A stretch of DNA of 64,000 nucleotides from an uncultured virus (IMG/VR IMGVR_UViG_3300021400_000318) (Duplodnaviria; Heunggongvirae; Uroviricota; Caudoviricetes), in IMG/VR virus record IMGVR_UViG_3300021400_000318; one strand, given 5' to 3'. Each line of letters opens with the position of its first letter. Positions within the stretch are counted from its first letter, which is position 1. The notes under the pieces were generated by a model. That model had not been told where the DNA came from and did not search any database. It saw only the letters and a program-made list of their open reading frames with translations. Below, one piece after another: positions 4,025 through 57,117 of the stretch. The position numbers and the translations under genes are program-made.

Positions 4025-4041
4025 GAGGTTAATTAATCATT

Positions 4042-4061
4042 CAGCCCCCTTTGTGGGGCTG
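4042..4061 (+). promoter_or_regulatory. GC-rich hairpin downstream of VR (DGR target-recognition hairpin)
   Basis: cagcccc-ctttgt-ggggctg, 7-bp perfect stem just after the target stop codon. Confidence 0.75.
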
Positions 4062-4089
4062 CGTATCAAGTGTATAATGTAACAATAAT

Positions 4090-4527: not shown

Positions 4528-4549
4528 AGATACAGGTATGACTCTGAAG

Positions 4550-4636
4550 GTGGTTTCCGCTTCCAATGCCGCTAATGCGAACAACAACGGCAACGCGAAC
4601 AATAACACCGCTTCGAATGGCAATTATGTCGCTGCG
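4550..4636 (+). ncRNA. DGR template repeat (TR)
   Basis: AAC/AAT-rich invariant copy of VR, non-coding, between avd and RT. Confidence 0.95.
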
Positions 4637-4810
4637 ATTATCCCTCTGCGCTCCCAATGGCTAACAGACACACAAGTGTCAAAACAAAAAGCCTGCTAAG
4701 AGGATAAGGAGAGTCAGACCTTCTGCCCATAGGCAGTAAATAAGCAGGGTGACGCTGCCTGATACGTCAGATGTAGCTATCAGCACCCTGCCATTTAAAA
4801 AATAAAGAAT

Positions 4811-9013: not shown

Positions 9014-10264
9014 TTAATCTTTGTTTATCCCCAGAACATAGTCCATAACCATTCTGTTGGCTCTGTCGATCTTCTCCCTGTTGAAGTCAATGTAGATAGC
9101 CGTTGTCTTGTTCGTGGTCGAGTGACCGAGGGCAGCTGATATGGTAGCGTCTGGAATGTCGAGTTCGCTTGCGATGGTTGCCCATGTATGACGTGCCCAA
9201 TATGATGACAGTCCAGGAAAGGCAGAATGATGCACCTTGTGTAGCCTGTGTTTCTTTGAGCCACGTTTCCACTCTGGATTCTGCTCGTATGTGACAGGCC
9301 CTATCTCCTTTAGTCCCCTGTCGAACTTCTTGGTGAAGGTCGTTGGCTTGGATATTCCGTCAAGGAGGTTGAGCAGATGCCCCTTCCCACTGTAGCGGCT
9401 GATAATCTCCATCGCCTCTGGTTCTACTTTGATGGAGTACATCTTCTTCGTCTTGGCTCTCCTATAGACCAGATACCCTTCATTGGAAATCTCATACAGC
9501 AGACACAGGTCAGTAACATTGATGCCGATTAGGAAGAAGGACAGCTTGAACATGTCAAGGTAGCGTTGCTGATATGGTTCCACAGGATAGTTGAACAACT
9601 CTCTTAGTTGCTCCAGAGTGAGTGACCTCTTCTGTGTGGCCTCTGGACGGATCTTGAATTTGCGGAACGGATAGACACTTGTGATGTCGTTGTCTATCGC
9701 ATCATTGAACACGGCACGGATATTGCGAAGGTGGATATTCCTTCCGTTCTTGGCAGGATTGTACTTCATCAGAAACCTGTCGAAGCCGTCAAGCCATTCC
9801 TTGTTGATTTCCTCGAAGGTGCGAGTTCTTGCCTTGCTGTCATACTCCAGAACACGTTTTATCGTTATCTCGTATTTCTCCTTGGTGCTCTGTGCATCCC
9901 TTGTTGCAGCGTAAGCCTCCATCCTTGGCAGAAAGGCATTAGGCTCCACGTCTTTCGGTTCCAGTACCGCAAGTACCTTGTTCTTTATCTGTGTTGCGGT
10001 TAGTTTCGTCAGTTCACCATCAGCGGTAAGCCTCATCACGATATTGGCCACCTCTGTCTTTCTGGTATCAATATACGAGTTGAGTTTGTTCTTGTTCGGA
10101 TGGTCTTTGATTTTCTCCCTTACTGCATCCCACTGGGAAGGGAATATCCAGAGTTTGAGCGGAATGTATGCCGAGGAACCCTTCTTGTTGATTCCGATTT
10201 TGATTTGCGCTTCATCTGCTCTAATTGTCCTTTTGTCGAGATAAAGGTGTATTGATGCTGCCAT
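9014..10264 (-). CDS. int: tyrosine integrase (Bacteroidetes type, Arm-DNA-binding + SAM-like + catalytic domains)
   Basis: YWARHTWATIA, ALGH, and TTAIY catalytic Tyr; adjacent to a tRNA-derived att site. Confidence 0.95.
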   Translation of the reverse strand: MAASIHLYLDKRTIRADEAQIKIGINKKGSSAYIPLKLWIFPSQWDAVREKIKDHPNKNKLNSYIDTRKTEVANIVMRLTADGELTKLTATQIKNKVLAVLEPKDVEPNAFLPRMEAYAATRDAQSTKEKYEITIKRVLEYDSKARTRTFEEINKEWLDGFDRFLMKYNPAKNGRNIHLRNIRAVFNDAIDNDITSVYPFRKFKIRPEATQKRSLTLEQLRELFNYPVEPYQQRYLDMFKLSFFLIGINVTDLCLLYEISNEGYLVYRRAKTKKMYSIKVEPEAMEIISRYSGKGHLLNLLDGISKPTTFTKKFDRGLKEIGPVTYEQNPEWKRGSKKHRLHKVHHSAFPGLSSYWARHTWATIASELDIPDATISAALGHSTTNKTTAIYIDFNREKIDRANRMVMDYVLGINKD

Positions 10265-22528: not shown

Positions 22529-22566
22529 AAAAGTATTTGTTATTCAAATATTATTCGTTACCTTTG
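22529..22566 (+). promoter_or_regulatory. class II promoter (ATTTG-N5-CAAAT over -33; TAnnTTTG -7)
   Basis: aaaagtatttgttattcaaat...tacctttg; near-identical at 32635, 45710, 54411. Confidence 0.7.
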
Positions 22567-30581: not shown

Positions 30582-30793
30582 AGAAACCAGATGTTGAAGT
30601 AATCTTTGACCCAGAGCAGTTCAAGGGCCTCACGGCCAAATATATTGTGAGATTTATCAGAAAGAATGAGCGTACAGCCATTGTCGGTGACAAGTATGGT
30701 GTAGACAGACATATCATCCGTTATGCCACCGTAAAGGACTGGACCGAGTATAGAGAACATAATCCTTATTCTGAAACGTATGGAAGAAATTAA
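30578..30793 (+). CDS. hypothetical protein
   Basis: Overlapping start/stop coupling. Confidence 0.45.
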   Translation: MKKPDVEVIFDPEQFKGLTAKYIVRFIRKNERTAIVGDKYGVDRHIIRYATVKDWTEYREHNPYSETYGRN

Positions 30794-32396
30794 GTTGTTA
30801 TATATTGACCTGTTTTGTGGCGCAGGCGGCACGTCAACAGGTGTCGAGAAAGCCACCATCCACGGAGAGAAATGCGCCAAGGTGATAGCGTGTGTGAATC
30901 ACGATCCCAATGCGATAGCCTCACACGCTGCCAACCATCCAGAGGCAGTACACTTTACTGAGGATATAAGGACTTTAGAGTTATCACCCTTATTACTGCA
31001 CCTCCAGAAGAAAAAAGCCGAATATCCGAACGCATACGTAGTCCTATGGGCCTCGCTTGAATGCACTAACTTCAGCAAAGCAAAAGGTGGAATGCCAAGA
31101 GACGCAGACAGTCGTACTCTGGCTGAACATCTGTTCCGTTACATCGAAGCCATTGACCCAGACTATATCCAGATAGAGAATGTCGAGGAATTTATGTCTT
31201 GGGGAGATATGGATGAGTACGGCCATCCTATCAGCAAGGACAAAGGACGGCTGTATATGCGATGGATAGGCAATGTCAAGAAGCATGGCTATGATTATGC
31301 GTACAGGGTTCTCAATTCAGCAGACTATGGAGCCTACACCAGTCGTAAGCGTTTCTTCGGCCAGTTCGCCAAGAAGCACCTCCCTATCGCTTTTCCAGAA
31401 GCGACACACTCCAGAACAGGAGATAGCAACGGACTGTTTGGCTCGTATCAGAAATGGAAGCCAGTACGTGATGTCCTTGACTTCAAGGATGAAGGTGAAT
31501 CCATCTTTGGCAGGAAGAAGCCGTTGGTAGAGAAAACACTTGAACGCATCTATGCAGGACTGGTCAAGTTTGTCGCAGGAGGCAAGGAAGCGTATGATGC
31601 GTACATGATAAAGTACAACTCTATGAGCCAGAGAGGAACTTATCAGCCGCCAAGTATTGATGAGCCTTGTCCTACTGTTGCCACCCAGAACCGCCTTGGT
31701 GTAGTCAAAATATCGTACCTCTCCAAACAGTTCTCTGGAGAGCCAGAAAGTAAGAATATAAGCGTTGATGGCCCTGCAGGAGCGATAACGACTATCGACC
31801 ATCACGCTCTTGTCAGTGCGAGTTTCTTGGATATGCAGTATGGCAATGGCACTCCGTCATCAGTAGAACGCCCTGCACCAACCGCAACCACCAACCCGAA
31901 GTATCAGTTAGTGACAGCTGACCACTGGTTGATGGATACGTCCTTCAATAACTTTGGCAGTTCCATCGAAGAGCCATCCAGAGTTATCACAGCCAACAGG
32001 AAATGGCACTACCTTATGAATCCTCAGTTTGCCAGTAAGGGTGGCTCTGTGGATTCTCCTTGCTTCACTCTGATAGCGAGGATGGATAAGATGCCTCCGT
32101 ATCTCATCAGTACGGAAGAAGGTGTAGGTATCGAGGTCTATGATAGTGATAGTCCTATGACTGTCAAGATTAAGGAGTTCATGGCAGCGTATGGCATCTA
32201 TGACATCAAAATGCGGATGCTGAAAATCTCTGAGTTGAAGCGTATCATGGGTTTCCCTGTTGACTACGTATTGAAGGGCAGTCAGGCAGAACAGAAGAAG
32301 TTTATCGGCAATGCTGTAGAGGTAGGAATGGCCAGAGTGTTATGCGAAGCCCTCTGCTATCGCCTTGAAGATATTGAAAGGAGAAAGGCAGTATGA
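30780..32396 (+). CDS. DNA (cytosine-5)-methyltransferase
   Basis: IDLFCGAGG, SLECTNFS, IENVEEF, R.RFF, IGNAV motifs. Confidence 0.92.
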   Translation: MEEIKLLYIDLFCGAGGTSTGVEKATIHGEKCAKVIACVNHDPNAIASHAANHPEAVHFTEDIRTLELSPLLLHLQKKKAEYPNAYVVLWASLECTNFSKAKGGMPRDADSRTLAEHLFRYIEAIDPDYIQIENVEEFMSWGDMDEYGHPISKDKGRLYMRWIGNVKKHGYDYAYRVLNSADYGAYTSRKRFFGQFAKKHLPIAFPEATHSRTGDSNGLFGSYQKWKPVRDVLDFKDEGESIFGRKKPLVEKTLERIYAGLVKFVAGGKEAYDAYMIKYNSMSQRGTYQPPSIDEPCPTVATQNRLGVVKISYLSKQFSGEPESKNISVDGPAGAITTIDHHALVSASFLDMQYGNGTPSSVERPAPTATTNPKYQLVTADHWLMDTSFNNFGSSIEEPSRVITANRKWHYLMNPQFASKGGSVDSPCFTLIARMDKMPPYLISTEEGVGIEVYDSDSPMTVKIKEFMAAYGIYDIKMRMLKISELKRIMGFPVDYVLKGSQAEQKKFIGNAVEVGMARVLCEALCYRLEDIERRKAV

Positions 32397-32614
32397 TTAC
32401 GTATGTTCCTACAATACACCATAAGAGCCATCCAAAAGTGATGACATGCCCATTTGGTGAAAGAGACCTCCAGAATGATGAGTGTTATTCTGGTAATGGT
32501 CATAACAAATGCCCTTACTTCGTCCGTTACGAATGGTGTAATGAGCATGACGGTTGCGTTTCCTGCACCCATCCGCCCAAGCCAAAGTATATCGAATTGG
32601 GCCTATTTGGGTAG
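32393..32614 (+). CDS. Cys-rich hypothetical protein
   Basis: 73-aa coupled ORF. Confidence 0.45.
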   Translation: MITYVPTIHHKSHPKVMTCPFGERDLQNDECYSGNGHNKCPYFVRYEWCNEHDGCVSCTHPPKPKYIELGLFG

Positions 32615-32634
32615 TGAAACTCTCAAAAAGATTT

Positions 32635-32672
32635 AAAAGTATTTGTTTTTCAAAGAAATTTAACTATCTTTG
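32635..32672 (+). promoter_or_regulatory. class II promoter
   Basis: aaaagtatttgtttttcaaa...tatctttg. Confidence 0.75.
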
Positions 32673-32690
32673 CAGCAAAGTTACAGAACT

Positions 32691-33794
32691 ATGAAGTATG
32701 ACTATCTTATAGTAGGAGCCGGTCTATTCGGTTGCACCTTCGCTCGTTTGGCCACGAACGCAGGCAGAAAATGTATGGTAATTGACAGAAGGCCGCAATT
32801 CGGAGGTAATACGTATTGCGAAGAGATTGATGGAATCACCGTTCACAAGTACGGTCCTCATATCTTTCACACCTCTAATGAGGACGTTTACAGGTTTGTC
32901 ACCTCTCTGGTCAAGGTTGAGCCGTTCACAAACAGCCCCCTTGCTCGCTTTGGAGGAAAGTTGTACAACCTGCCGTTCAACATGAATACGTTCAATCAGA
33001 TGTGGGGTGTCACCACACCTGCCGAGGCAATGAACAAGATTAAGCGTCAGAGTTGGTTTGTAGGTGACATCGAGAATCTGAGAGATAAGGCAATCTCGCT
33101 CGTAGGAAAGGACATCTACAAGAAATTGATTAAGGGCTACACCGAAAAGCAGTGGGGAAAGAAATGCGTTGAACTCCCTGCATCCATCATTACTCGCCTA
33201 CCAGTCAGATTCACGTTCGACAACCGTTATTTTAATGACCGCTATGAGTTTATCCCTGTCGGGGGTTACAACACCCTAACCGATGCACTTCTGAGAGGTA
33301 TAGCGGCTGTACCTTGCGTTGACTTCTTTGATGCTAAGAGAGACGTGTTCGAAATGGCTGAGAAGGTTGTATTCACAGGAAGGATAGATCAGTTCTACGA
33401 CTACAGGTTTGGTGAACTCGAATATCGTTCCCTCCTGTTCAAAAGTAAAGTGCTCGACACAGATAACTTTCAAGGGAATGCAGTCATCAATGATACGAGT
33501 AAGAAGGTCAAGTACACCAGAGTTATTGAGCACCGCCATTTCCAACCTCCGAAGATGAATATCAATAAGACGGTTGTTACTTACGAATATCCTGCATCAG
33601 TCGAAGAAACAGGTGAACCGTACTACCCGATTAACGATGAAAGGAATACAGCCATCTATCAGCAATACAAGGCACTGGCCGATAAGGAAGAAAAAGTGTT
33701 GTTTGGTGGTAGACTGGCAGAGTACAGATATTATGATATGGACGATGTAATAGAATCAGCGATGAAGTTATGGAAATCAGAATTGAACCGATAG
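32691..33794 (+). CDS. glf: UDP-galactopyranose mutase
   Basis: YDYLIVGAGLFG, HKYGPHIFHT, GYTEKQWG, RLPVRFTFDNRYFND, EPYYP, GRLAEYRYYDMD. Confidence 0.95.
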   Translation: MKYDYLIVGAGLFGCTFARLATNAGRKCMVIDRRPQFGGNTYCEEIDGITVHKYGPHIFHTSNEDVYRFVTSLVKVEPFTNSPLARFGGKLYNLPFNMNTFNQMWGVTTPAEAMNKIKRQSWFVGDIENLRDKAISLVGKDIYKKLIKGYTEKQWGKKCVELPASIITRLPVRFTFDNRYFNDRYEFIPVGGYNTLTDALLRGIAAVPCVDFFDAKRDVFEMAEKVVFTGRIDQFYDYRFGELEYRSLLFKSKVLDTDNFQGNAVINDTSKKVKYTRVIEHRHFQPPKMNINKTVVTYEYPASVEETGEPYYPINDERNTAIYQQYKALADKEEKVLFGGRLAEYRYYDMDDVIESAMKLWKSELNR

Positions 33795-34273
33795 ACAGGA
33801 AACATGCGAAAGATACCTGGCAGTATAGGAACGACCCAGACATCTGGAAGTTCACGTCCTGCGATACTCCTTTGCCTGCAACTCTGAACACAGAAGAGCA
33901 GTGCTATATCTTTCGAGGGCAGGACCCAAAGAACAGAATGTATGCCATCATGGTAGATGGCGTGGCCGTAGGAGCTGTTACATTGAAGCAGATTGGCTTT
34001 GGGACAGCCGCCATCGGATATTATATTCTGATGAAAGAACTATGGGGAAACGGCATCTGCAAGGAAGCTGTTCGACAGGTCATGGAGATTGGCTTTGGCG
34101 AGTTGGATCTTGATTTGCTGTACCTCTGGGTACACTCGGATAATGTCGCATCGTTCAAGGTTGCTCGCTCCCTTGGATTCTATAGTGTGGCCATGTCTTT
34201 TACGAACATGAATGTGCATAGACTTGAAATGACAAAGACTGTATGGAAAAGCAAGAAAAACGAATTGAAGTAG
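33770..34273 (+). CDS. GNAT (RimJ/RimL-like) acetyltransferase
   Basis: IGYYI....WGNG, V...N.AS..V...LGF. Confidence 0.85.
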   Translation: MEIRIEPIDRKHAKDTWQYRNDPDIWKFTSCDTPLPATLNTEEQCYIFRGQDPKNRMYAIMVDGVAVGAVTLKQIGFGTAAIGYYILMKELWGNGICKEAVRQVMEIGFGELDLDLLYLWVHSDNVASFKVARSLGFYSVAMSFTNMNVHRLEMTKTVWKSKKNELK

Positions 34274-34857
34274 TAGAACTCAAAGTAAGCGAACTGAACT
34301 ATGAGTTTGAGAACCCACGTAAGCCTCTCACTCCAAAGCGCAAGCAGGCCTTGGAGGAATCTCTGGAGAAGTTAGGTGATTTCGGTGTCATCGTCATTGA
34401 TGAGAAGAATAGTATTCTCTCTGGCAACCAGAGAGTGAAGATACTCCTTTCTCTCGACCCGAACAGGAAGGTGCTCTGTAAGCGTCTCATTGGATATACC
34501 GATGGCGAGAAGAAAGCCGTAAACATCAAAGCCAACACCCATGCAGGTGAATGGGATATGAAGAAACTTGCCGAATGGACTGGCGACCTCCATATCGACC
34601 TCTCAACCGACTTGACCGTATTGAATACCAAGGAGCCAAAGATTAAGGACATGGAACTGATTCGGTACGAGAAGTATGACTACGTGATGATTGTCTGCAG
34701 GAACGAGGTTGACTATAACAACCTCATCCGTGCTCTCGGTATTGAGGATAAGAAAGTACTCATCGCTCATACCAGAGACAAGGACAGAAAGATTAAGGCA
34801 CGTGCCATCTGGTATGATGACATGAAAGCCCAGATTGTACCTAAAAAGAAGAAATGA
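34243..34857 (+). CDS. ParB/Srx-like N-terminal domain protein
   Basis: NPR, SLEKLG, IVIDE...ILSGNQRV, N..AGEWD. Confidence 0.8.
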   Translation: MEKQEKRIEVVELKVSELNYEFENPRKPLTPKRKQALEESLEKLGDFGVIVIDEKNSILSGNQRVKILLSLDPNRKVLCKRLIGYTDGEKKAVNIKANTHAGEWDMKKLAEWTGDLHIDLSTDLTVLNTKEPKIKDMELIRYEKYDYVMIVCRNEVDYNNLIRALGIEDKKVLIAHTRDKDRKIKARAIWYDDMKAQIVPKKKK

Positions 34858-35891
34858 TGAAAGACTTCAATGTTTTGTTTACGTGCTGTGCGAACCACTT
34901 CAAGGAGCGTGCTGACAGCCTAAGAGAGAACGAGGATGGCGTTAAGGTCGGTATCTATGCGGCCAACTGCAATCCAGATAATCTGCCGCCAGACGATTTG
35001 GTTGACGGAAACTTCATCGTACCACCCATCACGGCACCAGAGTACCTTGATAAGATACTCGCAATCTGTCTCAGTCACGGAATAGACATCATCATCCCGA
35101 CTGCTACTGTAGAGTTGCGGATGATGGCAGAGAACAAGGGATTCTTTGAGCGTCACGGTATCAAGGTGTCTGTAGCATCACCAGAGGCTATATCTGTCTT
35201 GAATGACAAAATGGCCTTACAGCGTGCCTACGGCTCTCTCATGCCCATCCAATCCACCCCAAAGACAATAGACGATTTAGCGGACTTCTACAGGCTTCTG
35301 CCGAAAGATTCTGGAGTTTGCTGCAAACTCTCTGACCATGCAGGAGGAAACGGCTTCGCCATTATTGATGATGAAAAGGCAACAGACATCACCCTGTTCA
35401 ACAAGTTCGGGGAGAATACGTATATCAGCAAGGCTACCCTTGCTCAGATTGTATTGAAGAATCCTGGTCGCATCATTGTGCAGGAGTATGTCAAAGGTAT
35501 TGACTTCTCTGTAAGTGTTCTGGCATGGAAAGGTGCTGTTACACATATTGTCGGCTATGCAGGCTACCAGATGAGTTATGGTGCTATCGTGAATGGAGAG
35601 ATACGCTACAACAGCAAGGCTTATGAGATAGCGACGAAGCTGACAAAGGAACTCGGTCTTGATGGTAACGCATGTTTCGACTTCCGCATCAAGGATGACG
35701 GAACGGTGGTGCTTCTGGAGGTAAACCCCAGAGTTAACGCCTCACTGCCATTCGTTTGGAAGGCAGGAGTGAATATGCTGTACCTCAGATGTAAAAATCT
35801 GTATGGTGATTACTCCGACATGTATCAGTACAACAATATCAAGTTTGGACTAAAAATGAAGAAGTATCATGGAAGCAGGTATTTCCTTTAA
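34854..35891 (+). CDS. ATP-grasp ligase
   Basis: DIIIPT..E, NDK, IVQEYVKG, LLEVNPR. Confidence 0.85.
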   Translation: MMKDFNVLFTCCANHFKERADSLRENEDGVKVGIYAANCNPDNLPPDDLVDGNFIVPPITAPEYLDKILAICLSHGIDIIIPTATVELRMMAENKGFFERHGIKVSVASPEAISVLNDKMALQRAYGSLMPIQSTPKTIDDLADFYRLLPKDSGVCCKLSDHAGGNGFAIIDDEKATDITLFNKFGENTYISKATLAQIVLKNPGRIIVQEYVKGIDFSVSVLAWKGAVTHIVGYAGYQMSYGAIVNGEIRYNSKAYEIATKLTKELGLDGNACFDFRIKDDGTVVLLEVNPRVNASLPFVWKAGVNMLYLRCKNLYGDYSDMYQYNNIKFGLKMKKYHGSRYFL

Positions 35892-36603
35892 CATCTATGT
35901 AATGTCCTACCAGAGATATGACCGCATCGTTACCCAGAACCTCTTCGAGTACTGTACGTATGTGGTCAGAGAGGAAGAGGCAGAGAAATACAGGGAGGCA
36001 GGAGTAAAGAACCTGCTCATCATTCCCAAGGACTGTCCTGTCTGGAACTTCATGGACACTCTCTGGTGGACGATCTGGAACACTCCAGAGGACGTTATCT
36101 TCATCGCAGACGATGACATCACTCGTTTCATCTACAGGATGAATAACTGGTTGGCAATAGATACCGCCAACTTCAACAATCCTGTTGAGACGGTGACGGC
36201 AGAGATAGAGCGCATCGCTCAGATTCTTGTTGACCTAAATTTGGGTCTGGCGTATGACGGACCACAGAAAACGCTCTTCGCCTATGACAGAGAATGGAAC
36301 TTCAAAGGAATGCCTGGTCACTGTCGGTGGGTGAACAAGAAGGCTCTCAAAGCCAAGTACGACTGCAAGGACATGGCCTCATCTGATATTGACATGGCCA
36401 TGCAGGAAATGTTGCTCAACCGCATCACCTTGCAGCCGAAGTATTTCCTGTCTGACGCAGGCCAGATGGAAACCAACGCAGGCGGTGAGACGAATACCAG
36501 AGAAGAGACATTCCAAGGCCGTCTGGCGATGGAGAACAAATGGGGTAAGTATTATCAGTATGATGTGCGCAAGAATCAAGCCAAAATCAACATAAAAAGG
36601 TAA
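35869..36603 (+). CDS. GT-A glycosyltransferase, GREB1/TET-associated (TAGT)-like
   Basis: IYVMSYQR, YVVREEE..KY, ADDDI, DID..MQ, N.GG, KWG pattern. Confidence 0.7.
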   Translation: MEAGISFNIYVMSYQRYDRIVTQNLFEYCTYVVREEEAEKYREAGVKNLLIIPKDCPVWNFMDTLWWTIWNTPEDVIFIADDDITRFIYRMNNWLAIDTANFNNPVETVTAEIERIAQILVDLNLGLAYDGPQKTLFAYDREWNFKGMPGHCRWVNKKALKAKYDCKDMASSDIDMAMQEMLLNRITLQPKYFLSDAGQMETNAGGETNTREETFQGRLAMENKWGKYYQYDVRKNQAKINIKR

Positions 36604-36693
36604 AAGAAATTTATTGCGTTAAACTTTGGTAACTATTTGGAAATCAGCTAATTATTTGGTAACTTTGCAAATAAAACCAATAAAGCAAAGAAT

Positions 36694-37695
36694 ATGATGA
36701 ACAAAGGTGGTTATACACGACATTCACACAATATGTTTGAGGTGTCAAGCCTCATTCAGAAAGCGTTAAGGCGTAGGGATGCCAATATGGCTTACTATGC
36801 CGCAAACGAGTTGATACCAAAGTACAGGAACTATCTCTGGAAGAGACTTCTCACTGTATCGGCAGAGGACTGTTTCGACATGATTACTGGCCGTATCGTT
36901 CAACTCCACACACATGACACCAACAAACAGGATGATAAGAACATCGCTGTTGCCGTTTCTACACTGTTGAACGCAAGAAAGAACAGGGATGCAGACTACT
37001 TCGCCTGCAACCTCTTGAACTCCAGAGACACGAAAGATATATCAATCTATTGTGAGGAACTTGTAGATGACAAGACGTGCGCATCCAAGAACGGACATTG
37101 TATGTTTGACCTCGCAATCTGTCTGAGAAACGCTATTGACGCAGGTGATGATGAGTATGCCGGCTATGCCTGCAATGAACTGTTGGTCTATTACAGGAAC
37201 TTCGCTTGGAAAACGCTCATCATGAAAGCAAAGGAAATGGGCTTCGAACCAGTGGTTGCAGAGGTACGTGCTTTAAAGGCCGCAGACGAGATAACAAAGC
37301 AGTCATCTATCCTCTACTATGCCAAAGCCTTAACAACGTTACTAAAAGTCCGCAAATGGCGTAATATCGAAAATTTCCTGCCATCCTTCATATACAATGA
37401 CAAGATAGACCTCAGAATGTTCGACAATGTGCAGTACCGTATACCAGATTACGTCTATGACTGTCATACCTATATTGGCAAGGTGAGAGGCCGCACGAAA
37501 CAGGAGTTTATCGTTGATGAGCAGGCCGCTCTCACTCCACATATACAGGGAGAGTACGATAACGCCAGTTGGTCACATTTCTTCTGGCTGTGCGAACACG
37601 GATTCTATCGGGAGGACTATACTCCGCATCCTGCCAAGGAGCGTATGAAGGAACTTGAAACAGGAACCGTACAACTAAATCTGTTTGGCGAATGA
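36694..37695 (+). CDS. MgsA/RarA C-terminal-like helical repeat protein
   Basis: SLIQKALRR, LWKRLLTVSAED, IPDYVYDCHT. Confidence 0.65.
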   Translation: MMNKGGYTRHSHNMFEVSSLIQKALRRRDANMAYYAANELIPKYRNYLWKRLLTVSAEDCFDMITGRIVQLHTHDTNKQDDKNIAVAVSTLLNARKNRDADYFACNLLNSRDTKDISIYCEELVDDKTCASKNGHCMFDLAICLRNAIDAGDDEYAGYACNELLVYYRNFAWKTLIMKAKEMGFEPVVAEVRALKAADEITKQSSILYYAKALTTLLKVRKWRNIENFLPSFIYNDKIDLRMFDNVQYRIPDYVYDCHTYIGKVRGRTKQEFIVDEQAALTPHIQGEYDNASWSHFFWLCEHGFYREDYTPHPAKERMKELETGTVQLNLFGE

Positions 37696-38075
37696 GAAAA
37701 GTATCAGATGCAGTAGCCGCCAAGTTGGCGGCAAAGACACAACGAAGGAAGAGTAAACTTCTGAAAGCCCTTGCCGAAAGCAAGGGTATCGTTGCGTATG
37801 CCTGCGAGGCTGCAGGTGTAAGCAGAAATACGTATTATGAGTGGCTGAAGAGTGATGATGATTTCAAGCAGAAAGCGGAAGAAATCACCGAAGCAACCCT
37901 TGACAGAGTTGAGGCTAAACTGCTGGAGGCTATCAATGATGAAAATTTAACAGCCATCATTTTCTATCTTAAAACGAAAGGCAGGAACAGAGGCTATGTA
38001 GAGAGGATAGAGAATGAGCACATGGGAAACGCTTTCGAGAAGCTGATGAAGGAATTGCCAGACGAAGAAGAATGA
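37692..38075 (+). CDS. terS: terminase small subunit (HTH)
   Basis: ACEAAGVSRNTYYEW, AIIFYLKTKGRNRGYVE; directly before terL. Confidence 0.85.
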   Translation: MRKVSDAVAAKLAAKTQRRKSKLLKALAESKGIVAYACEAAGVSRNTYYEWLKSDDDFKQKAEEITEATLDRVEAKLLEAINDENLTAIIFYLKTKGRNRGYVERIENEHMGNAFEKLMKELPDEEE

Positions 38076-39586
38076 ACGTAGAGGAAAAGGGAAGAAGCAG
38101 AATGCAGGCATGGAGAAACGACTGGCCACTGTTTGCCAAAGAAGTGCTCCATGCTCGACTTGACGATGAGCAGATAGCGATACTGCGTGCCGTCCAGACT
38201 GAGAGGATGGTTGCTGTCGCTTCTGGAACGGCAAGAGGCAAGGACTATATCGCTGCCGTTGCCGCCATCTGTTTCATGTACCTTACCCCACGTTTCGACA
38301 AAGAAGGAAACCTCGTAAAGAACACGAAGATTGCCATGACAGCACCTACAGGCCGACAGGTGAAGGATATTATGATACCAGAGGTGTCACGTCTTTTCAA
38401 GAAGGCAGGCATCCTCCCTGGCGTTCTGTTATCTAACGGCATCCGCACCACCTATCAAGAATGGTATTTGACTGGCTTCAAATCGTCAGCAGACAACACC
38501 GAGGCTTGGTCTGGATTCCATGCTGTGAACACGATGTTCATAGTCACTGAGGCATCTGGTATTCCAGAGGCCACGTATAATGCCATCGAAGGTAACTTGC
38601 AAGGTAATTCTCGCCTGCTATTAGTATTCAACCCAAACGTAACAACAGGCTATGCAGCGAAAGCCATGAAGTCACCACGTTTTAAGAAGTTCCGTCTAAA
38701 CAGCCTCAACGCAGAGAACGTGGTAAAGAAGAAGAATATCATTCCCGGACAGGTGGACTACGAATGGGTAAAGGATAAGGTGGAGAACTGGGCAACGCCA
38801 ATCCGTCAAGATGAGTTTGATGAAGGCATGGGCGACTTCCGTTGGGAAGGTGCTTTCTACCGTCCTAACGACCTGTTCCGTGTCAAGGTGCTTGGCATGT
38901 TTCCGAAAGTGTCTGAGGATATCCTTATCCCTTACGAATGGGTGGAACTGGCCATCAAGCGTTGGCATAAGTTGAAGGAGGAAGGATTTACCACCAAGAA
39001 ACACGCACGCGTCGGTGTCGATGTCGCAGGCATGGGTAGAGACTGTAGCGTTCTGTTGCCTCGTTACGGATCATGGGTTCCGAAAATCGAGGTTCATCAG
39101 TCTGGAGGAAATGCCGACCACATGAAGATAGCAGGAAAGACTGTCATCTATCTGCAAGATGAGAAAGCCAAGGCGTTCATTGACACCATCGGTGAGGGCG
39201 CAGGTGTATATTCCCGACTGCAGGAGTTGGAGTATTATAACTCATATTCCTGCAAGAACTCGGAAGGAGCGAGAGGCCTGCATGACATCACAGAGCAGTA
39301 CACGTTCGCCAACATGAGGGCGTATCTCTTCTGGTGTGTTAGGGACTGGTTGAATCCGAAGAATGGCTTTGCACCCGCACTGCCTCCAGATGACCTGTTA
39401 GTTGAAGAGGCTACAGATATCCACTGGTCATTCCTCAGCAACGGCTCGATAATCATTGAGAAGAAGGATGAAATCAAGAAGCGTCTGAAACGCTCTCCAG
39501 ACCGCTTTGATGCTCTGGCCATGACATTTTATCCACATGATTATGACTACGCAAATGATGAAAAGTTGCTAAATAATTTGCTGTAA
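38072..39586 (+). CDS. terL: terminase large subunit
   Basis: SGTARGKD, TAPTGRQ, EASG, NPN, GVDVAGMG.D, SPDRFDAL. Confidence 0.92.
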   Translation: MNVEEKGRSRMQAWRNDWPLFAKEVLHARLDDEQIAILRAVQTERMVAVASGTARGKDYIAAVAAICFMYLTPRFDKEGNLVKNTKIAMTAPTGRQVKDIMIPEVSRLFKKAGILPGVLLSNGIRTTYQEWYLTGFKSSADNTEAWSGFHAVNTMFIVTEASGIPEATYNAIEGNLQGNSRLLLVFNPNVTTGYAAKAMKSPRFKKFRLNSLNAENVVKKKNIIPGQVDYEWVKDKVENWATPIRQDEFDEGMGDFRWEGAFYRPNDLFRVKVLGMFPKVSEDILIPYEWVELAIKRWHKLKEEGFTTKKHARVGVDVAGMGRDCSVLLPRYGSWVPKIEVHQSGGNADHMKIAGKTVIYLQDEKAKAFIDTIGEGAGVYSRLQELEYYNSYSCKNSEGARGLHDITEQYTFANMRAYLFWCVRDWLNPKNGFAPALPPDDLLVEEATDIHWSFLSNGSIIIEKKDEIKKRLKRSPDRFDALAMTFYPHDYDYANDEKLLNNLL

Positions 39587-47230: not shown

Positions 47231-47276
47231 CAAGTAATGTAAGAGCAATGATATTGTTAAATTAAAACGATTGATT

Positions 47277-48455
47277 ATGAATGTAAAGAACATCATTTCG
47301 ATGGATGAACTGTCGTATGTGTCACGTCAGTCATTCACAGAGAAGATTGCCATCCAAAGACTGGCAACCTATGACACACAGTTACAGCAGAAACGTGACA
47401 ATCTCGCACCTATCTCCGAAGCACAGGCCAAGGAGATTAAGGACTTCTGGAGCAAGAAACTCATGTGGCATGACGGACTTCTAAATATGAAGTATTACGA
47501 TGTCTATAATGCCGTTGAGCAGGACAGGTCAAAGTTGAAGCTGTATATCCCAGACAGTTTCTTTTATGCGTTCATTGATGAGTACTTCACCAATCCACAG
47601 CGCAGTACGGCTCTTGATGACAAGAATATGTATGACATGTACTTCCCGAACGTCAAGCGTCCAAAGACTATTGCACGTAAGGTTGACGATGTGTACTTGA
47701 ATGAGAACTATGAGCCGATTTCTGTCGAGGACTTCATCAAAACCTGCAAGGAGCACAAGGAGGTCATCGTTAAGTCTGCCATCGGATCGTGGGGAGGCCA
47801 CGGTGTGAAGTTCTGGGATGCCGAGAAAGATAGCGTAGAGACACTTCTGAACTATATCTATACCCAGAATGCAGAGTATTTCAGAGGCTCATCAGTGTAT
47901 AAGCAGTACATCGTACAGGAGGTGTTTAAACAGCACAAGGACTTGGCAGACATCAATTCGAGCAGTGTCAACACCATCCGAGTGATGACCCTGTTCCGTA
48001 ATGGCAATGTCAAGGCTCTGTCATCAGTGCTTCGCATGGGTGTTGACGGCAGTCGTGTAGATAACTGCAGTAGCGGTGGAATTGTTTGCGGCATCACAGA
48101 GGATGGGCACTTGAAGGAAGTTGCCTATGATGGAGCGGCCAACCGCTTCTACCGCCATCCGCAGGGTGTCGAGTTCATAGGACGTGTTGTTCCTGCATAC
48201 GCTGAGTGTGTTGCTATGGCAGAGAAATTGGCGTACCGCTTCTATGGAGCCTCACGCCTAATCTCTTGGGATTTCGCTGTTGCGGAAGATGGAACGCCCA
48301 CACTGATTGAAATGAATATCTCGTTTGGTGAGTTGGACTTCCATCAGTTGTGTAACGGACCTATCTTCGGTGATGACACAAAGGACATCATTGATGAAGT
48401 CTTTGACCACAGCCATACTTTAAAGGAAATCATTAAGTTGTACGATAAAGAGTAA
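47277..48455 (+). CDS. sugar-transfer-associated ATP-grasp protein
   Basis: LDDK, P.TI, GGHGV, VQE...QH.....N.SSVNTIRV.T, DN.SSGG, WDFA..EDG.P.LIE.N. Confidence 0.8.
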   Translation: MNVKNIISMDELSYVSRQSFTEKIAIQRLATYDTQLQQKRDNLAPISEAQAKEIKDFWSKKLMWHDGLLNMKYYDVYNAVEQDRSKLKLYIPDSFFYAFIDEYFTNPQRSTALDDKNMYDMYFPNVKRPKTIARKVDDVYLNENYEPISVEDFIKTCKEHKEVIVKSAIGSWGGHGVKFWDAEKDSVETLLNYIYTQNAEYFRGSSVYKQYIVQEVFKQHKDLADINSSSVNTIRVMTLFRNGNVKALSSVLRMGVDGSRVDNCSSGGIVCGITEDGHLKEVAYDGAANRFYRHPQGVEFIGRVVPAYAECVAMAEKLAYRFYGASRLISWDFAVAEDGTPTLIEMNISFGELDFHQLCNGPIFGDDTKDIIDEVFDHSHTLKEIIKLYDKE

Positions 48456-49025: not shown

Positions 49026-49398
49026 ATACCCTGCCATCGCCTATGGCAAACTGACGTTTGAAGAGAGCCGTTACCAGAGAGGTGACAAGTGGTGGTATGC
49101 CTCCACCCTTCTACGTGCCTGCCATGAAGCAGAACTGGAGCCGTTCGAGTACCCTGTTGCCTGCTATGATATGGCAAACAAGTATTTCCCTCTGGATAAT
49201 ATGGATGATTTCGTCTGGCAGATGAAGCGGACGTTGGAAGCAGACTATGAGAACTACCCAATAATATTGGATGATTTAGGCCAGGTTGCCGATGGCAATC
49301 ATCGCATCTGCCATGCCATTCTGGATGGTAAGACAAGCGTTCTCGCCTACAGGCTCCAGACGATGCCAGAACCAGACTTTATAAAGGAAGAAAGTTAA
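49012..49398 (+). CDS. ParB/Srx-like small protein
   Basis: YPIILD..G..ADG.HR..HA. Confidence 0.7.
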   Translation: MKSSKYPAIAYGKLTFEESRYQRGDKWWYASTLLRACHEAELEPFEYPVACYDMANKYFPLDNMDDFVWQMKRTLEADYENYPIILDDLGQVADGNHRICHAILDGKTSVLAYRLQTMPEPDFIKEES

Positions 49399-51497
49399 TG
49401 GCAAGAATAAGGACACCGAACCAGAAGAAAGCGTATAATGCTCTGAACAACCGACTGACACAGTACGTTAGTCAAGTTCAGAGCATCTATGATATGGCCA
49501 ACAGGAGGATGGCAGAGATAGCCGCCTCTACTGACTATGACGGAGAGGTGCCCTTCTCATTCAAGGACTACCCAGAGTTAGCCGAAGCTGTCAAGGACGT
49601 ACAGGCTCAGTTTGTCAATGAGATTGGAACTACCATCATGCGTGGAACCTCAGAGGAATGGAGGCAGAGTAATCTCATACAGGACCTATTGGCCGATAAG
49701 GTATTGAAGCACTATCGGGCGCAGGTACGAGGCAAGCGTTTCAAGCAGTACTACCAGACGAACAGTGATGCCCTCAAAGCCTTCCAGAACCGCAGAGACA
49801 GAGGAATGAACCTGTCTGCCAAACTCTGGGGACAGGCTGACGAATATACGATGGAAACAGAGGCTGCAATTTCCTGCACTATCAGCAATGCCATCGAGAA
49901 GGGAATGTCGGCTATAACGTTGTCAAAACGTCTCTCAAAGTACCTGCAGGACTACCCTTCACTACTGCATGATTATTGGGAAACCTACGGTAAGGCAGCG
50001 AATATCCATGACTGCGAGTATCGAAGCATCCGTCTGGCACGATCTGAAATCAATATGGCCTATCGCACTGCCGAGCAGGAGCGTTGGAAGCAGTTTGATT
50101 TTGTCCTCGGGTATGAAATCAAGCTGTCCGGTAGCCATCCGCACACAGACATCTGTGACGATTTGAAGGGCAGGTACCCAAAGGATTTCGTCTGGACTGG
50201 TTGGCACCCTAACGATATGTGCTATGCTGTTCCTATCATTATGAGTGAGGAAGAATACTGGAGTGAAAACAGAAGAAAATCTGACGAGCAGATTACGGAC
50301 GTTCCTCAGCCATACAAGGATTGGGTTGCAGGAAATGTCAACAGGATAAAGTCTGCTGACAGAAACGGAACATTACCATATTTCCTCAAAGAGAATCCAG
50401 ATTTCCGAAAATACATGGGTACAGACTATGTGGCAGAATGGAGGCATCGTACCAGAAATGCAGATGAAATACAACTTGCATGGAATAACAGGAAGGCCAT
50501 GAAAGAAAGTTCTGACTATTTCCCTCTTACCAACCTTCGTAAACATGCACACTATGTAGGCTATGATATGTCTGAGTTTGAACAGTTCATCCGCACTACT
50601 GATTTGAAGTATGATAAGAATGGAATAAGTAAGCTGTTCGAGGACGCATACGATAAGTACGAGGCAGAGTATTTCGAGAAGAGAGCAAGCGTCAACGCCT
50701 CTTATACACGTCTGAATGGACTTCTGAACTCTGCCAAACTTTGTGTCGGCCCATACAGGGTGCAGTCTGCTATAAACGAAATGGAATTGGCTATAGGCAA
50801 TTATTCAACTATCACGGCACATGTTGGCCAGTCGTATTCCTCCAAGAGGTTTGATGAAGCGTACCGGTCAGCAAGAAAGAAACTGAATGCAGCCGCCAAA
50901 GCCGCAAACACAGCCAACGATGCGGATATAGAAAATGCTCTCGGCATCAAGAAGGGACACCCGATGCCTTTCCTGGAGGCTGACCAAGGAAGGGGAAATA
51001 TCCGTTATACTGGTCGTTTGTTAAATCCATACTCCATCAACTGTCAAGTATGTGTCGTAGCAGACGAACTCCGTAGAAGAGGATATGATGTGACTGCCCT
51101 TGGAAGAATCGAAGGTAGCGGAATGGTTGATAAGATTGCTCACCATACAGAGTTACCTTGGTTTGAAAAGAACACTGGTAGAATACCCATCAAGAAACGT
51201 ATCGGAATGTCTGGAAAATCTGTCAGCGACATCTACATTGAACTGGAAACAATGACAACAGCCAAAGGACGTTATCATATTGATTGGGGATGGGCAGGAG
51301 GCACAGAAGGCCATATTGTCTGCCTCGAACGCAGGGCAAATGGAACGCTTCGTTACTATGACCCACAGAACGGACAGCCGTATGACATCTTTGATATTAT
51401 CAGAAGAAGTAACAGAAACTTCCCTCTGAATGTATTGAAGGTTGATGATTTGCTTGTTGACCCGCGAATTATTAGGTCAATAGTTAAACCTTTGTAA
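49398..51497 (+). CDS. minor head (MuF-like) protein with C-terminal papain-fold toxin-like domain
   Basis: RLARSEINMAYR, CDDL.G.YPK.F.WTGWHP..C N-half; C-terminal NCQVCVVA.ELRRRGYDV, GH, YYDPQ. Confidence 0.75.
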   Translation: MARIRTPNQKKAYNALNNRLTQYVSQVQSIYDMANRRMAEIAASTDYDGEVPFSFKDYPELAEAVKDVQAQFVNEIGTTIMRGTSEEWRQSNLIQDLLADKVLKHYRAQVRGKRFKQYYQTNSDALKAFQNRRDRGMNLSAKLWGQADEYTMETEAAISCTISNAIEKGMSAITLSKRLSKYLQDYPSLLHDYWETYGKAANIHDCEYRSIRLARSEINMAYRTAEQERWKQFDFVLGYEIKLSGSHPHTDICDDLKGRYPKDFVWTGWHPNDMCYAVPIIMSEEEYWSENRRKSDEQITDVPQPYKDWVAGNVNRIKSADRNGTLPYFLKENPDFRKYMGTDYVAEWRHRTRNADEIQLAWNNRKAMKESSDYFPLTNLRKHAHYVGYDMSEFEQFIRTTDLKYDKNGISKLFEDAYDKYEAEYFEKRASVNASYTRLNGLLNSAKLCVGPYRVQSAINEMELAIGNYSTITAHVGQSYSSKRFDEAYRSARKKLNAAAKAANTANDADIENALGIKKGHPMPFLEADQGRGNIRYTGRLLNPYSINCQVCVVADELRRRGYDVTALGRIEGSGMVDKIAHHTELPWFEKNTGRIPIKKRIGMSGKSVSDIYIELETMTTAKGRYHIDWGWAGGTEGHIVCLERRANGTLRYYDPQNGQPYDIFDIIRRSNRNFPLNVLKVDDLLVDPRIIRSIVKPL

Positions 51498-54576: not shown

Positions 54577-55311
54577 ATGAACAAGCATTTCAGAAAAGTT
54601 CAAGATGTGCTGAAAACGAGAAAGGAGATTAAGGCGCTCGGGTTCAGCCGTAAAGAGTTAAAGGGTATCGCTGCCAAAGTTGCCGATAAACTTGACCTCG
54701 ATGATGAAGCAAGTGACGAAGATGTTGAGAAAGCGATTAACGATGAGGTTGATGCCGTTATCCCTTTCCTTCAGACTGCACAGAGCCTTGCTGACCGCCG
54801 TCTCCAAGAGTACAAAGACGCTCATCCTGCCGATGACGATGACGACGATGACGATGACCTTAACGACCCAGATGACGATGAGGGTGATAAGAGTCCATCG
54901 AACAAGGGCAAGAAGGGCAAGGGCAACAAGAACCAGACTGCCACTGAGAAACTTCTTGGCGAACTGACAAACACCATTAAGGGTCTCCAAACCGAAATCG
55001 CTGACCTAAAGAGCGGCAAGACTGCTGACAGCAGAAAGGCCAAACTGGAGGCACTGGTTAAGGACACTGGCCGTTTCGGTGAACGTACTCTCAAATCTTT
55101 CGCCCGCATGTCGTTCAAGGATGATGAAGAGTTCGAAGCCTACCTGGATGAGGTACAGGAGGAACTTGATGCCGAGAACAAGGAGAGAACCGAGAAGGGT
55201 CTTGACAAGTTAGGCACACCCCCTGCCGTCAGAACGGATGGCGGACACGAAACACACAAGGACGATGAAGTTATGTCGGATGATGATGTCAAGGATCTGG
55301 CCAAAGACTGA
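54577..55311 (+). CDS. capsid scaffolding protein
   Basis: Acidic/coiled-coil, first gene of the head cluster. Confidence 0.7.
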   Translation: MNKHFRKVQDVLKTRKEIKALGFSRKELKGIAAKVADKLDLDDEASDEDVEKAINDEVDAVIPFLQTAQSLADRRLQEYKDAHPADDDDDDDDDLNDPDDDEGDKSPSNKGKKGKGNKNQTATEKLLGELTNTIKGLQTEIADLKSGKTADSRKAKLEALVKDTGRFGERTLKSFARMSFKDDEEFEAYLDEVQEELDAENKERTEKGLDKLGTPPAVRTDGGHETHKDDEVMSDDDVKDLAKD

Positions 55312-55346
55312 TTCTCTGCTATGTCAAACAATTAAAACCAAGTACA

Positions 55347-55769
55347 ATGGGAGCAAAAACCAATCTCGGTAAGAAGGATGCCACTCTGGTTGAAGCCGGA
55401 CTGGATTCTGTTGTTATCCGTCATTATGGCTCTGGTATCACTGGTGGTCGCTCACTCGATATGACTGGCTTCACTGGTACCGCCATTAAGGCAGGTCACA
55501 TGACCATCAAGACACTGGATGAGGATGGTAAGAACTACACGTTCAAGCCAATGCCAGTTGCCCAGGACGGTGTTCACTATGCGGCCCTCCCTGCAAGCCA
55601 TGAGTATGCAGGTGTTGTGGTTGCCTCTAAGCCTGCTGACCAAGCAATGGTCGGCATTATGGATGATGGCCGTGTCAACGATGAGGCTATGCCTTATCAG
55701 TTTGCGGATGCTGCACAGCGTGCCGCAGTCAAGGCCGCTCTGCCTAACCTTATTTTCGAACACGATTAA
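55347..55769 (+). CDS. head decoration protein
   Basis: GGRSLD..G, IKAGH, PMPV, G.VN...PY; between scaffold and MCP. Confidence 0.65.
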   Translation: MGAKTNLGKKDATLVEAGLDSVVIRHYGSGITGGRSLDMTGFTGTAIKAGHMTIKTLDEDGKNYTFKPMPVAQDGVHYAALPASHEYAGVVVASKPADQAMVGIMDDGRVNDEAMPYQFADAAQRAAVKAALPNLIFEHD

Positions 55770-55782
55770 AAGCAAGTAGAGT

Positions 55783-57117
55783 ATGAAAGCATCAATGTTT
55801 ATTGAATGGATTAGTTCCATCTGGCCCAAACTGGGTCTCTATGTGAAGGAGAAGACTGCGCCTATCAAGCGCACCTATCTCCATAAAACCATGCTTCGTA
55901 AGGTGTATTCTCCAGACCAGAAGTGGGAGGGCACCAGTGCCAAGACTACGTATGTAGCCGCTGACATGGTGGCAATGGATTCACCACTGCCCATCAAGAA
56001 GCGTGGAAGTATTGCTACCTCCAACGGTAAACTGCCGAAGGTAGGTATGAAGAAAATCATGCGTGAGACGGAGATTAACACCGTTAACATCATGAAGGCT
56101 CATTACGCAACAGCCACTACCGATGAGGCTAAGAAGGCTGAGAAGCGTCGCATCCTCCAGAGCCTCACCAACGATGGTGTGGCATGTTCTGTTGGTATTG
56201 ACGAGAAGAACGAGGCTAACTTCCTTACTGGTCTCTCTGACGGTGTTGTTCTCGTTGAGGACGAAGAGAATACCGGCACAGGTCTGCGTGTTGACTACGG
56301 CTATCTGGATGAGAATACCTTTGGTACCATCGTCAAGGGCCACGTTAGCTACGAGGACTTCGAGAACGTCAAGAGGAAGGCTGATGCTGACGGCAACACT
56401 ATCGTCAAGTTAATGGTTGCCACCTCCAAGCTGAACGAAATCCGCAAGGAGCGTTGGGCTCGCGAGTTGGTTGCTGATGCAGAGGATAAGGTTTACACCG
56501 ACACAACCACGCTCAAAGTACCTTCCAAGAAGAAGTTTATCGCTGCTCTGGAGGATGAGTTTGACATCAAGGTTGAAGAGGTTGACCGCACCGTCATCTT
56601 CGAGAAGAACGGCAAGCAGAAGTCTGTCAAGCCTTGGAACGCAGAGCGTATCATCTTCCTGTGTAACGAGGAAGTTGGTTCTCTGGTTTATGGCACACTG
56701 GCTGAAGCTACCAATCCTGTTGAGGGCGTCAAGTATGCCACTGTTGATGAGTACAAACTTATCTCCAAGTACTCTAAGACCGACCCGCTGCAGGAGTTCA
56801 CGAACGGCCAGGCTCTTGTCCTGCCTGTCATCGAGGACGTTGACCAGATTTACATCTTGGACTGCTCCGAGGATAAGTCTGCCGAGGTTGACACTACAGC
56901 CGAGGAAGCCGATACTGCTGATATTTACATCACCATCAACAACAAGAAGTACTCTAAGACCGAAGTTGCTGCACAGTTGACGGCTATGGGTTACAAGACC
57001 TCTGCAACCGCCAAGGATGAAACCATCATGAAGAAGTTTAACGCTCTGAGTGATGAGGAAGAGGAAACGTTCCTCGCTGCCGTGACAGAGATTACTGAGG
57101 GCGGTGGTGGCAATTAA
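55783..57117 (+). CDS. major capsid protein
   Basis: 444 aa, VAADMVAMDSPLP.K.R, G.LPK.G; synteny. Confidence 0.8.
   Translation: MKASMFIEWISSIWPKLGLYVKEKTAPIKRTYLHKTMLRKVYSPDQKWEGTSAKTTYVAADMVAMDSPLPIKKRGSIATSNGKLPKVGMKKIMRETEINTVNIMKAHYATATTDEAKKAEKRRILQSLTNDGVACSVGIDEKNEANFLTGLSDGVVLVEDEENTGTGLRVDYGYLDENTFGTIVKGHVSYEDFENVKRKADADGNTIVKLMVATSKLNEIRKERWARELVADAEDKVYTDTTTLKVPSKKKFIAALEDEFDIKVEEVDRTVIFEKNGKQKSVKPWNAERIIFLCNEEVGSLVYGTLAEATNPVEGVKYATVDEYKLISKYSKTDPLQEFTNGQALVLPVIEDVDQIYILDCSEDKSAEVDTTAEEADTADIYITINNKKYSKTEVAAQLTAMGYKTSATAKDETIMKKFNALSDEEEETFLAAVTEITEGGGGN

Follow-up and report, generated by a model that had tools for sequence, protein, structure and literature searches.

What does a run of sugar-handling genes do directly in front of the terminase genes of a phage? 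The question is raised by a 64,000-nucleotide stretch of DNA from an uncultured virus of the Caudoviricetes (IMG/VR IMGVR_UViG_3300021400_000318), which we refer to as the window. A first-pass annotation had described the run as a glf-GNAT-ParB-ATP-grasp-glycosyltransferase (GT) cluster and proposed that it galactofuranosylates DNA during packaging. Packaging-linked DNA glycosylation is still the best reading of the locus, and we propose with moderate confidence that it takes place at the packaging stage, independently of TET, and that the sugar is further acylated. The role given to Glf, the membership of a neighbouring C5-cytosine methyltransferase and the treatment of an MgsA C-terminal-like (MgsA-C-like) gene as a bystander did not survive the comparison of related loci. 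The conserved unit is a three-gene core of ParB, a TAGT-family GT and the MgsA-C-like gene, placed before the terminase, and it is not centred on glf.

A conserved three-gene core before the terminase

The genes named by the first-pass annotation were all confirmed, and all lie on the + strand. The core comprises the ParB-like protein (34243-34857; phrog_620, E = 1e-20), the TAGT-family GT-A glycosyltransferase (35869-36603; TAGT E = 1.4e-4, which is under the curated cut-off, and phrog_842 E = 1e-6) and a stand-alone MgsA/RarA C-terminal-like helical protein (36694-37695), recognised by its structural match to the MgsA C-terminal domain. The terminase small subunit gene terS (37692-38075; PHROG terS, E = 3e-13) and the large subunit gene terL (38072-39586; phrog_2, E = 6e-28) follow. 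The accessory genes are glf, encoding a UDP-galactopyranose mutase (32691-33794; Pfam GLF, E = 9e-73), a GNAT N-acyltransferase gene (33770-34273; Acetyltransf_3, E = 1e-19), both optional, and a PylC-like ATP-grasp amide ligase gene (34854-35891; ATPgrasp_Ter E = 1e-15, PylC-like_N E = 3e-11). From glf to the GT gene, each gene runs into the next by 4-31 bp. The GT gene and the MgsA-C-like gene are 90 bp apart, with a separate Bacteroidota-type promoter in between, and the MgsA-C-like gene is coupled to terS and terL by ATGA overlaps. The likely glf start is the ATG at 32691 and not the TTG at 32670 chosen by the open reading frame (ORF) finder, because the latter falls within the promoter box.

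GT-anchored searches gave 104 loci (three duplicates omitted), and the counts below use the 75 of these that have 5 kb or more of upstream and 3.5 kb or more of downstream sequence. The MgsA-C-like gene was found in all 75, ParB in 74, and the complete core in 74. An ATP-grasp was present in 65 loci, an Orn/DAP-type pyridoxal phosphate (PLP) decarboxylase in 58, GNAT in 49 (two queries pooled), Glf in 31, PIG-L in 13, WbqC in 6 and a C5-methyltransferase in 2. When the set was thinned so that 27 distinct GTs were left, all 27 loci still had both ParB and MgsA-C, whereas Glf remained in 14 and the methyltransferase in 1.

The reverse search relied on MgsA-C motifs alone; it gave 594 confirmed matches, of which the best 80 were analysed. 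A GT profile built beforehand matched 63 of these best 80 loci, and profiles rebuilt from the MgsA-C loci themselves detected a GT in 71 and ParB together with a GT in 63. The order ParB-GT-MgsA-C was kept in 59 of the 60 loci, from the same best 80, that had at least 3 kb upstream. Bare triads made up 26 of the best 80, with 6 distinct GTs; at one locus (L161), the MgsA-C gene was present with neither GT nor ParB within 3.1 kb upstream. The two sets have at least four contigs in common. The same core is kept in Bacteroidota, Bacillota and Microbacterium phages despite their differing terminase types.

The glycosyltransferase

TAGTs and their neighbourhoods were reportedly defined by Iyer in 2013. 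The structure model of the window GT (pLDDT 91.9) has a GT-A fold, and its top viral matches were TAGTs and the PKO111 glucosyl-HMC transferase (TM 0.73-0.76, E = 1e-10 to 1e-12). GT-A structures in the PDB reached a TM of 0.53 at most, and generic GT2 proteins scored far lower than the viral TAGTs. In the Atlas search, 30/30 matches were TAGT clusters, with a best score of 0.98. Profile scans pointed the same way: 46 of 48 family members matched phrog_842 (beta-glucosyl-HMC-alpha-glucosyltransferase), 37 matched TAGT (PF20691) at E ≤ 0.01, and none of the 48 matched a GT2 or lipopolysaccharide (LPS) family profile. A grouping with LPS or capsule transferases, which had been named earlier as the outcome that would speak against DNA modification, did not emerge; the GT groups with DNA glycosyltransferases and not with LPS enzymes.

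The Pyle preprint (10.1101/2023.12.21.572611) names R...DDD...EDY/F as the motif found in GT-As that act on DNA, the trypanosome JGT among them, and TarP as the best PDB match of DNA-type GTs. In the window GT, the corresponding R16, D81-D83 and D173 are kept in 96-100% of 28 diverse rows; residue conservation in the GT and in the MgsA-C-like protein reflects in part the way in which the loci were selected. The clade of the window GT comprises 22 rows (support 100/99), of which 21 carry a PylC-like ATP-grasp and most also a decarboxylase. No similarity to RB69 ORF003c was detected, and a tblastn search of cultured phages with the window GT gave no match.

The ParB-like and MgsA-C-like proteins

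The ParB-like protein (204 aa) consists of an N-terminal nucleotide-binding domain and a short, family-specific C-terminal domain; it has a GxxR motif, and the HTH_ParB profile did not match it. Residues N24, G61, R64, N98 and E143 are invariant across 29 rows. The C-terminal profile is common to the ParBs of Microbacterium cluster EC phages, CS266P2 and Javan291, and it did not match the TET-linked ParB of Mycobacterium phage Cooper. As reported in PMC13229309, the ParB that activates phage DNA (thymine) dioxygenases on double-stranded DNA is built from N- and C-terminal domains, both of which are needed, and has no DNA-binding domain. Direction of modification by ParB during packaging has also been proposed (PMC8256090, citing Iyer 2013).

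The best structural match of the MgsA-C-like protein is the C-terminal domain of MgsA (Z 11.7, root-mean-square deviation 1.3 over 97 residues). Its five top VIA matches are all MgsA C-terminal structures, with Z of 10.7-11.7, below the value of 13 that serves as a caution level for helical folds. Relatives of the protein match PF12002, and its sequence motifs presumably resemble those of MgsA. No AAA Pfam match to an AAA+ domain was obtained, the model is all-helical, and the domain is duplicated in this phage. A sequence search of the PDB returned no match, and weaker helical fold matches, e.g. questin oxidase (Z 8.0), were rejected as noise. The conserved residues are Q22, R26, E58, D59, K96, R98, D99, D256 and H258; the Q, R, E-D, K-x-R and D-x-H-T elements persist as far as the protein of Arthrobacter phage KellEzio, and those of Stenotrophomonas phage DLP5 and Vibrio phage KarBoss retain Q-K-x-x-R-R, E-D and D-x-H-T. 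Judged from this pattern, the conserved patch could be either a catalytic or a binding surface. The MgsA C-terminal domain has long been viewed as an oligomerisation scaffold, and we put the phage protein forward as a candidate priming factor only tentatively. We also observed that its nearest Atlas clusters are mostly viral, most commonly Nucleocytoviricota, and giant viruses may therefore carry related proteins.

Tailoring genes and the sugar

Among 136 neighbour proteins, those of pathway type were epimerases, a PglF-like dehydratase, DegT, PIG-L, WbqC, UDP-glucose dehydrogenase, Glf, GNAT, ATP-grasps, the decarboxylase and a Mur ligase. The swappable tailoring genes are those for Glf, GNAT, the ATP-grasps, the PLP decarboxylase, PIG-L, WbqC and UDP-glucose dehydrogenase. 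Glf was rejected as a core gene, being confined to 31/75 loci and either present or absent beside closely related GTs. What stands of the galactofuranosylation proposal is that galactofuranose is plausible as the sugar, and only plausible, because Glf is optional.

The window Glf carries the motif HIFHT, as does E. coli Glf (1I8T), and not the HIFRT of 4MO2, which we take to be a Campylobacter enzyme that accepts GalNAc via that Arg. HIFRT-type Glf was found in 4/4 Glf loci with PIG-L, against 0/24 for the HIFHT type; these loci are close kin, and the association is a lead only. In four loci (L054, L055, L091, L092), HIFRT-type Glf occurs alongside PIG-L and either two or three ATP-grasps, a combination that suggests a route through GalfNAc, de-N-acetylation and acylation.

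A second ATP-grasp of the window (47271-48455, + strand; ATPgrasp_ST, sugar-transfer associated, E = 5e-36) has moved to a place behind the portal gene; the TTG start of its ORF may lie upstream of the true start. It probably belongs to the module, and five loci (L065, L066, L088, L097, L184) have a homologue that lies within the module or next to it. Since most rows of the window GT clade carry the decarboxylase, this gene has probably been lost in the present phage. There are two possible parallels: in thymine hypermodification, PLP decarboxylases and GNATs act on DNA-linked amino acids, and butirosin side-chain synthesis employs an ATP-grasp/decarboxylase pair.

Two further genes were observed in related loci. 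A protein of ~310 aa without a Pfam match (L095:7758-8678, homologues in L091-L094) is encoded between PIG-L and ParB or Glf; it is a candidate tailoring enzyme, and some of these loci have no ATP-grasp. A radical SAM gene is placed between the MgsA-C-like gene and terS at L060:13734-14561 and in L038 and L086.

Promoters

The promoter ahead of glf (32635-32673, + strand) is of the Bacteroidota sigma-A-like kind, and its upstream box is extended in a way specific to the phage ('class II'). A second Bacteroidota-type promoter stands ahead of MgsA-C-terS-terL (36636-36668, + strand). The class II promoter, already noticed in the first pass, represents a real motif class: AAAAGTATTTGTTTTTCAAA...TATCTTTGC has perfect copies at 32635, 45710 and 54411 and a further copy, differing at a single base, at 22529, and the - strand of the window has zero copies even when 4 mismatches are allowed. 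The promoters of glf, the portal gene (45710) and the 54577 gene have an exact 20-mer in common. From gene order, 54577-57117 would contain the scaffold and capsid genes; a Pfam scan of this interval gave no match. The copy at 22529 precedes a probable replication gene, so that 'late' expression of the class is a presumption. The pattern TTTG-N15-22-TAnnTTTG, which we take to be the Bacteroidota-type consensus, was found 14 times in the window, whereas 30 Markov controls had 1.7 copies on average and never more than 4. A sigma-70 scan remained at chance level (20 sites vs a mean of 16.1) and was discarded as the wrong promoter type. In relatives, a class II-equivalent site lies ahead of glf in L001-L003 and L064, and sites equivalent to the 36636-36668 promoter occur in L001, L004, L048 and L054.

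Another promoter class, CGTTTTGATATTCAGAAA...TAACTTTGC, is present in five near-identical copies (25608, 29534, 39973, 42222, 52098). It precedes small-gene blocks that include ArdC-N/MPTase (40729), MutS-I (43834), DUF3560, YodL and DUF2958.

Proposed pathway and alternatives

We propose that the DNA would be glycosylated after replication, at the packaging stage, independently of TET/JBP and of thymidylate-synthase-type priming. By analogy with the phage thymine dioxygenases, ParB would engage double-stranded phage DNA and activate or position the machinery. The GT would transfer to the DNA a sugar, plausibly galactofuranose from Glf and otherwise a host NDP-sugar; the ATP-grasps would join an amino acid or amine via an amide bond, with relatives adding a PLP decarboxylase; and GNAT would cap the amine. 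The acceptor is the least certain step: the MgsA-C-like protein may create or expose it, or the GT may attack an unmodified base, a DNA end or a backbone group. The likely purpose would be to block restriction or CRISPR nucleases. The promoter class common to glf and the portal gene counts for the packaging stage. A broader proposal, which we regard as doubtful, is that ParB, TAGT and MgsA-C-like constitute a widespread third route, in which MgsA-C would prime via E-D, K-x-R-D and D-x-H and swappable cassettes would build novel adducts. These would be an aminoacylated furanose, amino-sugar or uronate, undescribed on DNA so far.

Several observations weigh against DNA glycosylation, beginning with the priming enzymes. 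Tet_JBP was detected in 0/23 records, among which 11 had a completeness of 90% or more, in a search that found Cooper gp2 as the positive control and that a very divergent oxygenase would escape; ThyS (PF00303) was detected in 0/15 records, with the RB69 control matching twice. Known base-hydroxyl routes are therefore missing, unless too divergent to detect. The Pyle preprint deems GTs without 5mYOX or ThyS less likely to be DNA-acting; about 65% of its GT contigs had no priming enzyme and were set aside. The window GT scores 22.3 bits against TAGT, under the curated Pfam cut-off of 27.5, which the GTs of CS266P2 and Javan291 exceed. At the Glu position of EDY/F it has Ser, and its clade Ser or Thr, as compared with Glu in CS266P2, Javan291 and others; it is also acidic (pI 5.2). 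GTs 96-98% identical to one another occur both with and without glf, so that either the host supplies UDP-Galf or UDP-Galf is not the only donor of the GT. Galactofuranose has neither a carboxyl nor an amino group, which leaves the ATP-grasp substrate unexplained. In CS266P2 and Javan291, the genes for ParB and a TAGT stand immediately ahead of the terminase, and no MgsA-C-like gene, TET, ThyS or Thy1 was found in these phages; the MgsA-C-like gene is thus not universal, which counts against its being indispensable. No reported DNA modification was found, in the literature searched, for a phage with the exact triad. DNA of phage DLP3 resisted 15/15 restriction enzymes and that of DLP5 32/36 (PMC7326821, PMC5834331); this resistance lends indirect support only, because the GT of DLP5 has another fold and the phage also carries a weak Thy1-like gene. 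Finally, late expression is equally compatible with glycosylation of the virion.

Within the window, the absence of TET/JBP stated in the first pass was borne out for the ORFs scanned against Pfam (sets of 12, 32 and 30), among which no thymidylate synthase was found either. Thy1 was present in 2/18 records, and the 136 neighbour proteins included no oxygenase and one canonical Thy1. The C5-cytosine methyltransferase (30780-32396, + strand; PF00145, E = 2e-30), which the earlier reading had noted just upstream, is a neighbour and not part of the module: a 73-aa ORF and a promoter stand between its gene and glf, and only 2/75 related loci carry one. It was ruled out as the source of a 5-methylcytosine acceptor on this count and by the absence of TET. 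As a separate observation, Cooper gp2 (L200:785-1753) is annotated as a queuine tRNA-ribosyltransferase and matches Tet_JBP (E = 4e-6 and 4e-8).

The main rival to DNA glycosylation is that the cassette glycosylates capsid or tail proteins as in mycobacteriophage Che8, while ParB and the MgsA-C-like protein would form a scaffold at the prohead or at the packaging motor. We consider this unlikely. In its favour, promoters of the same class precede the portal gene and a putative head operon, no DNA priming enzyme was found, the tailoring genes resemble surface-glycan chemistry, and virion glycosylation is known in phages (PMC11256854). Against it stand the membership of the GT in the TAGT/phrog_842 clan, whose named members are DNA-acting, the ParB linkage (74/75 loci), which has no obvious role in protein glycosylation, and the constancy of the core across the phage groups with different terminase types.

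It is less probable still that the GT acts on a small molecule, a nucleotide signal or a host protein in counter-defence, or that the product is a free aminoacyl-sugar metabolite. ATP-grasp, decarboxylase and GNAT enzymes also build small molecules, the GT is soluble and acidic, and it has no known DNA acceptor; yet the pre-terminase position recurs in very different phages, and the anti-restriction genes of this genome sit behind the other promoter class. Lysogenic conversion, by which the cassette would alter the host O-antigen, capsule or wall polymer and exclude other phages, seems to us highly improbable. The phage is temperate, surface-glycan loci typically contain Glf, WbqC, DegT and PglF-like genes, and such a role was suggested, as a suggestion only, for the DLP3 GT. 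The cassette, however, has no flippase or membrane-bound transferase (the highest 19-residue hydropathy is 0.93 for the GT, in a range of 0.48-1.79 over ten proteins), 0/48 GT family members match GT2 or LPS families, lytic cluster EC phages retain the core, and the core is common to hosts with unrelated envelopes. All other explanations together have a similarly slim chance.

Part of the orphan GT class (the ~65% of Pyle et al.) gains from these results a fixed third partner and a minimal gene set, and the Microbacterium cluster EC phages are cultured, genetically workable carriers. If the target is DNA, the module would represent new DNA chemistry and a nuclease-evasion route in gut phages of Bacteroidota and Bacillota, and might assign a function to the C-terminal domain of MgsA/RarA/WRNIP1. 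The MgsA/RarA/WRNIP1 proteins are widely conserved. If the target is instead the virion, phage particle glycosylation would be extended to gut phages.

Genome context

The window covers most of a temperate phage genome, in which integrase, reverse transcriptase, portal and terminase genes were seen; the temperate assignment is based on the integrase (9014-10264). The genome is siphovirus-like and has no nucleotide pathway of its own. The closest GTs in bacterial assemblies (80-82% identity) sit in Prevotella metagenome-assembled genomes, and for this reason the host is probably a Prevotella-like member of the Bacteroidota. The relatives come from gut metagenomes, many of sheep and cattle.

Two other regions were noted. 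Behind probable tail genes, the reverse transcriptase (4811-5956; RVT_1, E = 8e-14) and a small upstream ORF (4090-4527) lie in a region (3146-5956) that looks like a diversity-generating retroelement. After the portal region, 49398-51497 encodes a 699-aa protein that ends in a glutamine deamidase domain of the papain fold (Gln_amidase, E = 1e-13); it is probably a minor head protein of the MuF type that carries a polymorphic toxin domain. Three metatranscriptome runs gave RNA contigs that covered pieces of the module, the terminase and ATPgrasp_ST, and hardly the methyltransferase; the cover was shallow, the runs had been retrieved with the window itself and DNA carry-over is possible, and it was not used as evidence.

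Comparison with known systems

No paper on the ParB-TAGT-MgsA-C unit was found in the literature searched, which excluded Iyer 2013, Freeman 2023 and supplements. The 5mYOX (TET/JBP)-ParB-GT clusters (PMC8256090; 10.1101/2023.12.21.572611; PMC13229309) share with the cassette a TAGT/JGT-like GT-A with R...DDD...D, the N- and C-terminal domains of ParB, the terminase neighbourhood and secondary sugar tailoring genes. They differ in that the cassette has no 5mYOX, its C5-methyltransferase is unlinked and the MgsA-C-like gene is the third core gene; Cooper has the layout ParB-TET-terS-terL. The pre-replicative 5-hydroxy(methyl)cytosine pathways of T-even phages, RB69 and RL38JI (PMC13326640) resemble it in the phage UDP-galactopyranose mutase of RL38JI and in a GT related to phrog_842, and the same source proposes that the phage Glf supplies galactose for the DNA of this Rhizobium phage. 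The window phage, in contrast, has no thymidylate-synthase homologue, is temperate and has no nucleotide pathway.

A distant MgsA-C-like gene accompanies ParB and a glycosyltransferase in DLP3, DLP5, KarBoss and KellEzio, but there the GT has a GT-B fold, the ParB C-terminus is different and MgsA-C is adjacent in KarBoss only. The GT-B is accompanied by PIG-L and DegT in DLP3 and DLP5; PIG-L, an epimerase and DegT occur in DLP5 and KarBoss, and the terminase adjoins in DLP5. No Thy1-like gene was found in KarBoss or KellEzio. The cellular MgsA/RarA C-terminal domain shares the helical collar fold with the phage protein, which differs in having no AAA+ or lid domain, in being duplicated and in its own DxHT tail.

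A cultured counterpart, found via the MgsA-C-like and ParB proteins, is Microbacterium cluster EC, of which 56 records carry ParB, GT and MgsA-C-like homologues. The core and its order are the same (MgsA-C profile, E = 3e-66), the ParB is 29% identical including the C-terminal domain, and the GT resembles the window GT weakly in pairwise comparison (E = 0.002), with the key motifs aligned. These genes are listed without function in the accessible parts of PMC7302621 and PMC12614000. The cluster EC 'AAA-ATPase' (L108:7983-8603) consists only of the MgsA C-terminal-like domain, and the label is wrong because there is no ATPase domain. Phage Jayden has ParB, GT, UDP-glucose dehydrogenase and MgsA-C-like genes in this order, a short way ahead of the genome end and terS. 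Cluster EC thus differs from the window in that UDP-glucose dehydrogenase replaces Glf, ATP-grasp and GNAT, and in the few small genes that come before terS.

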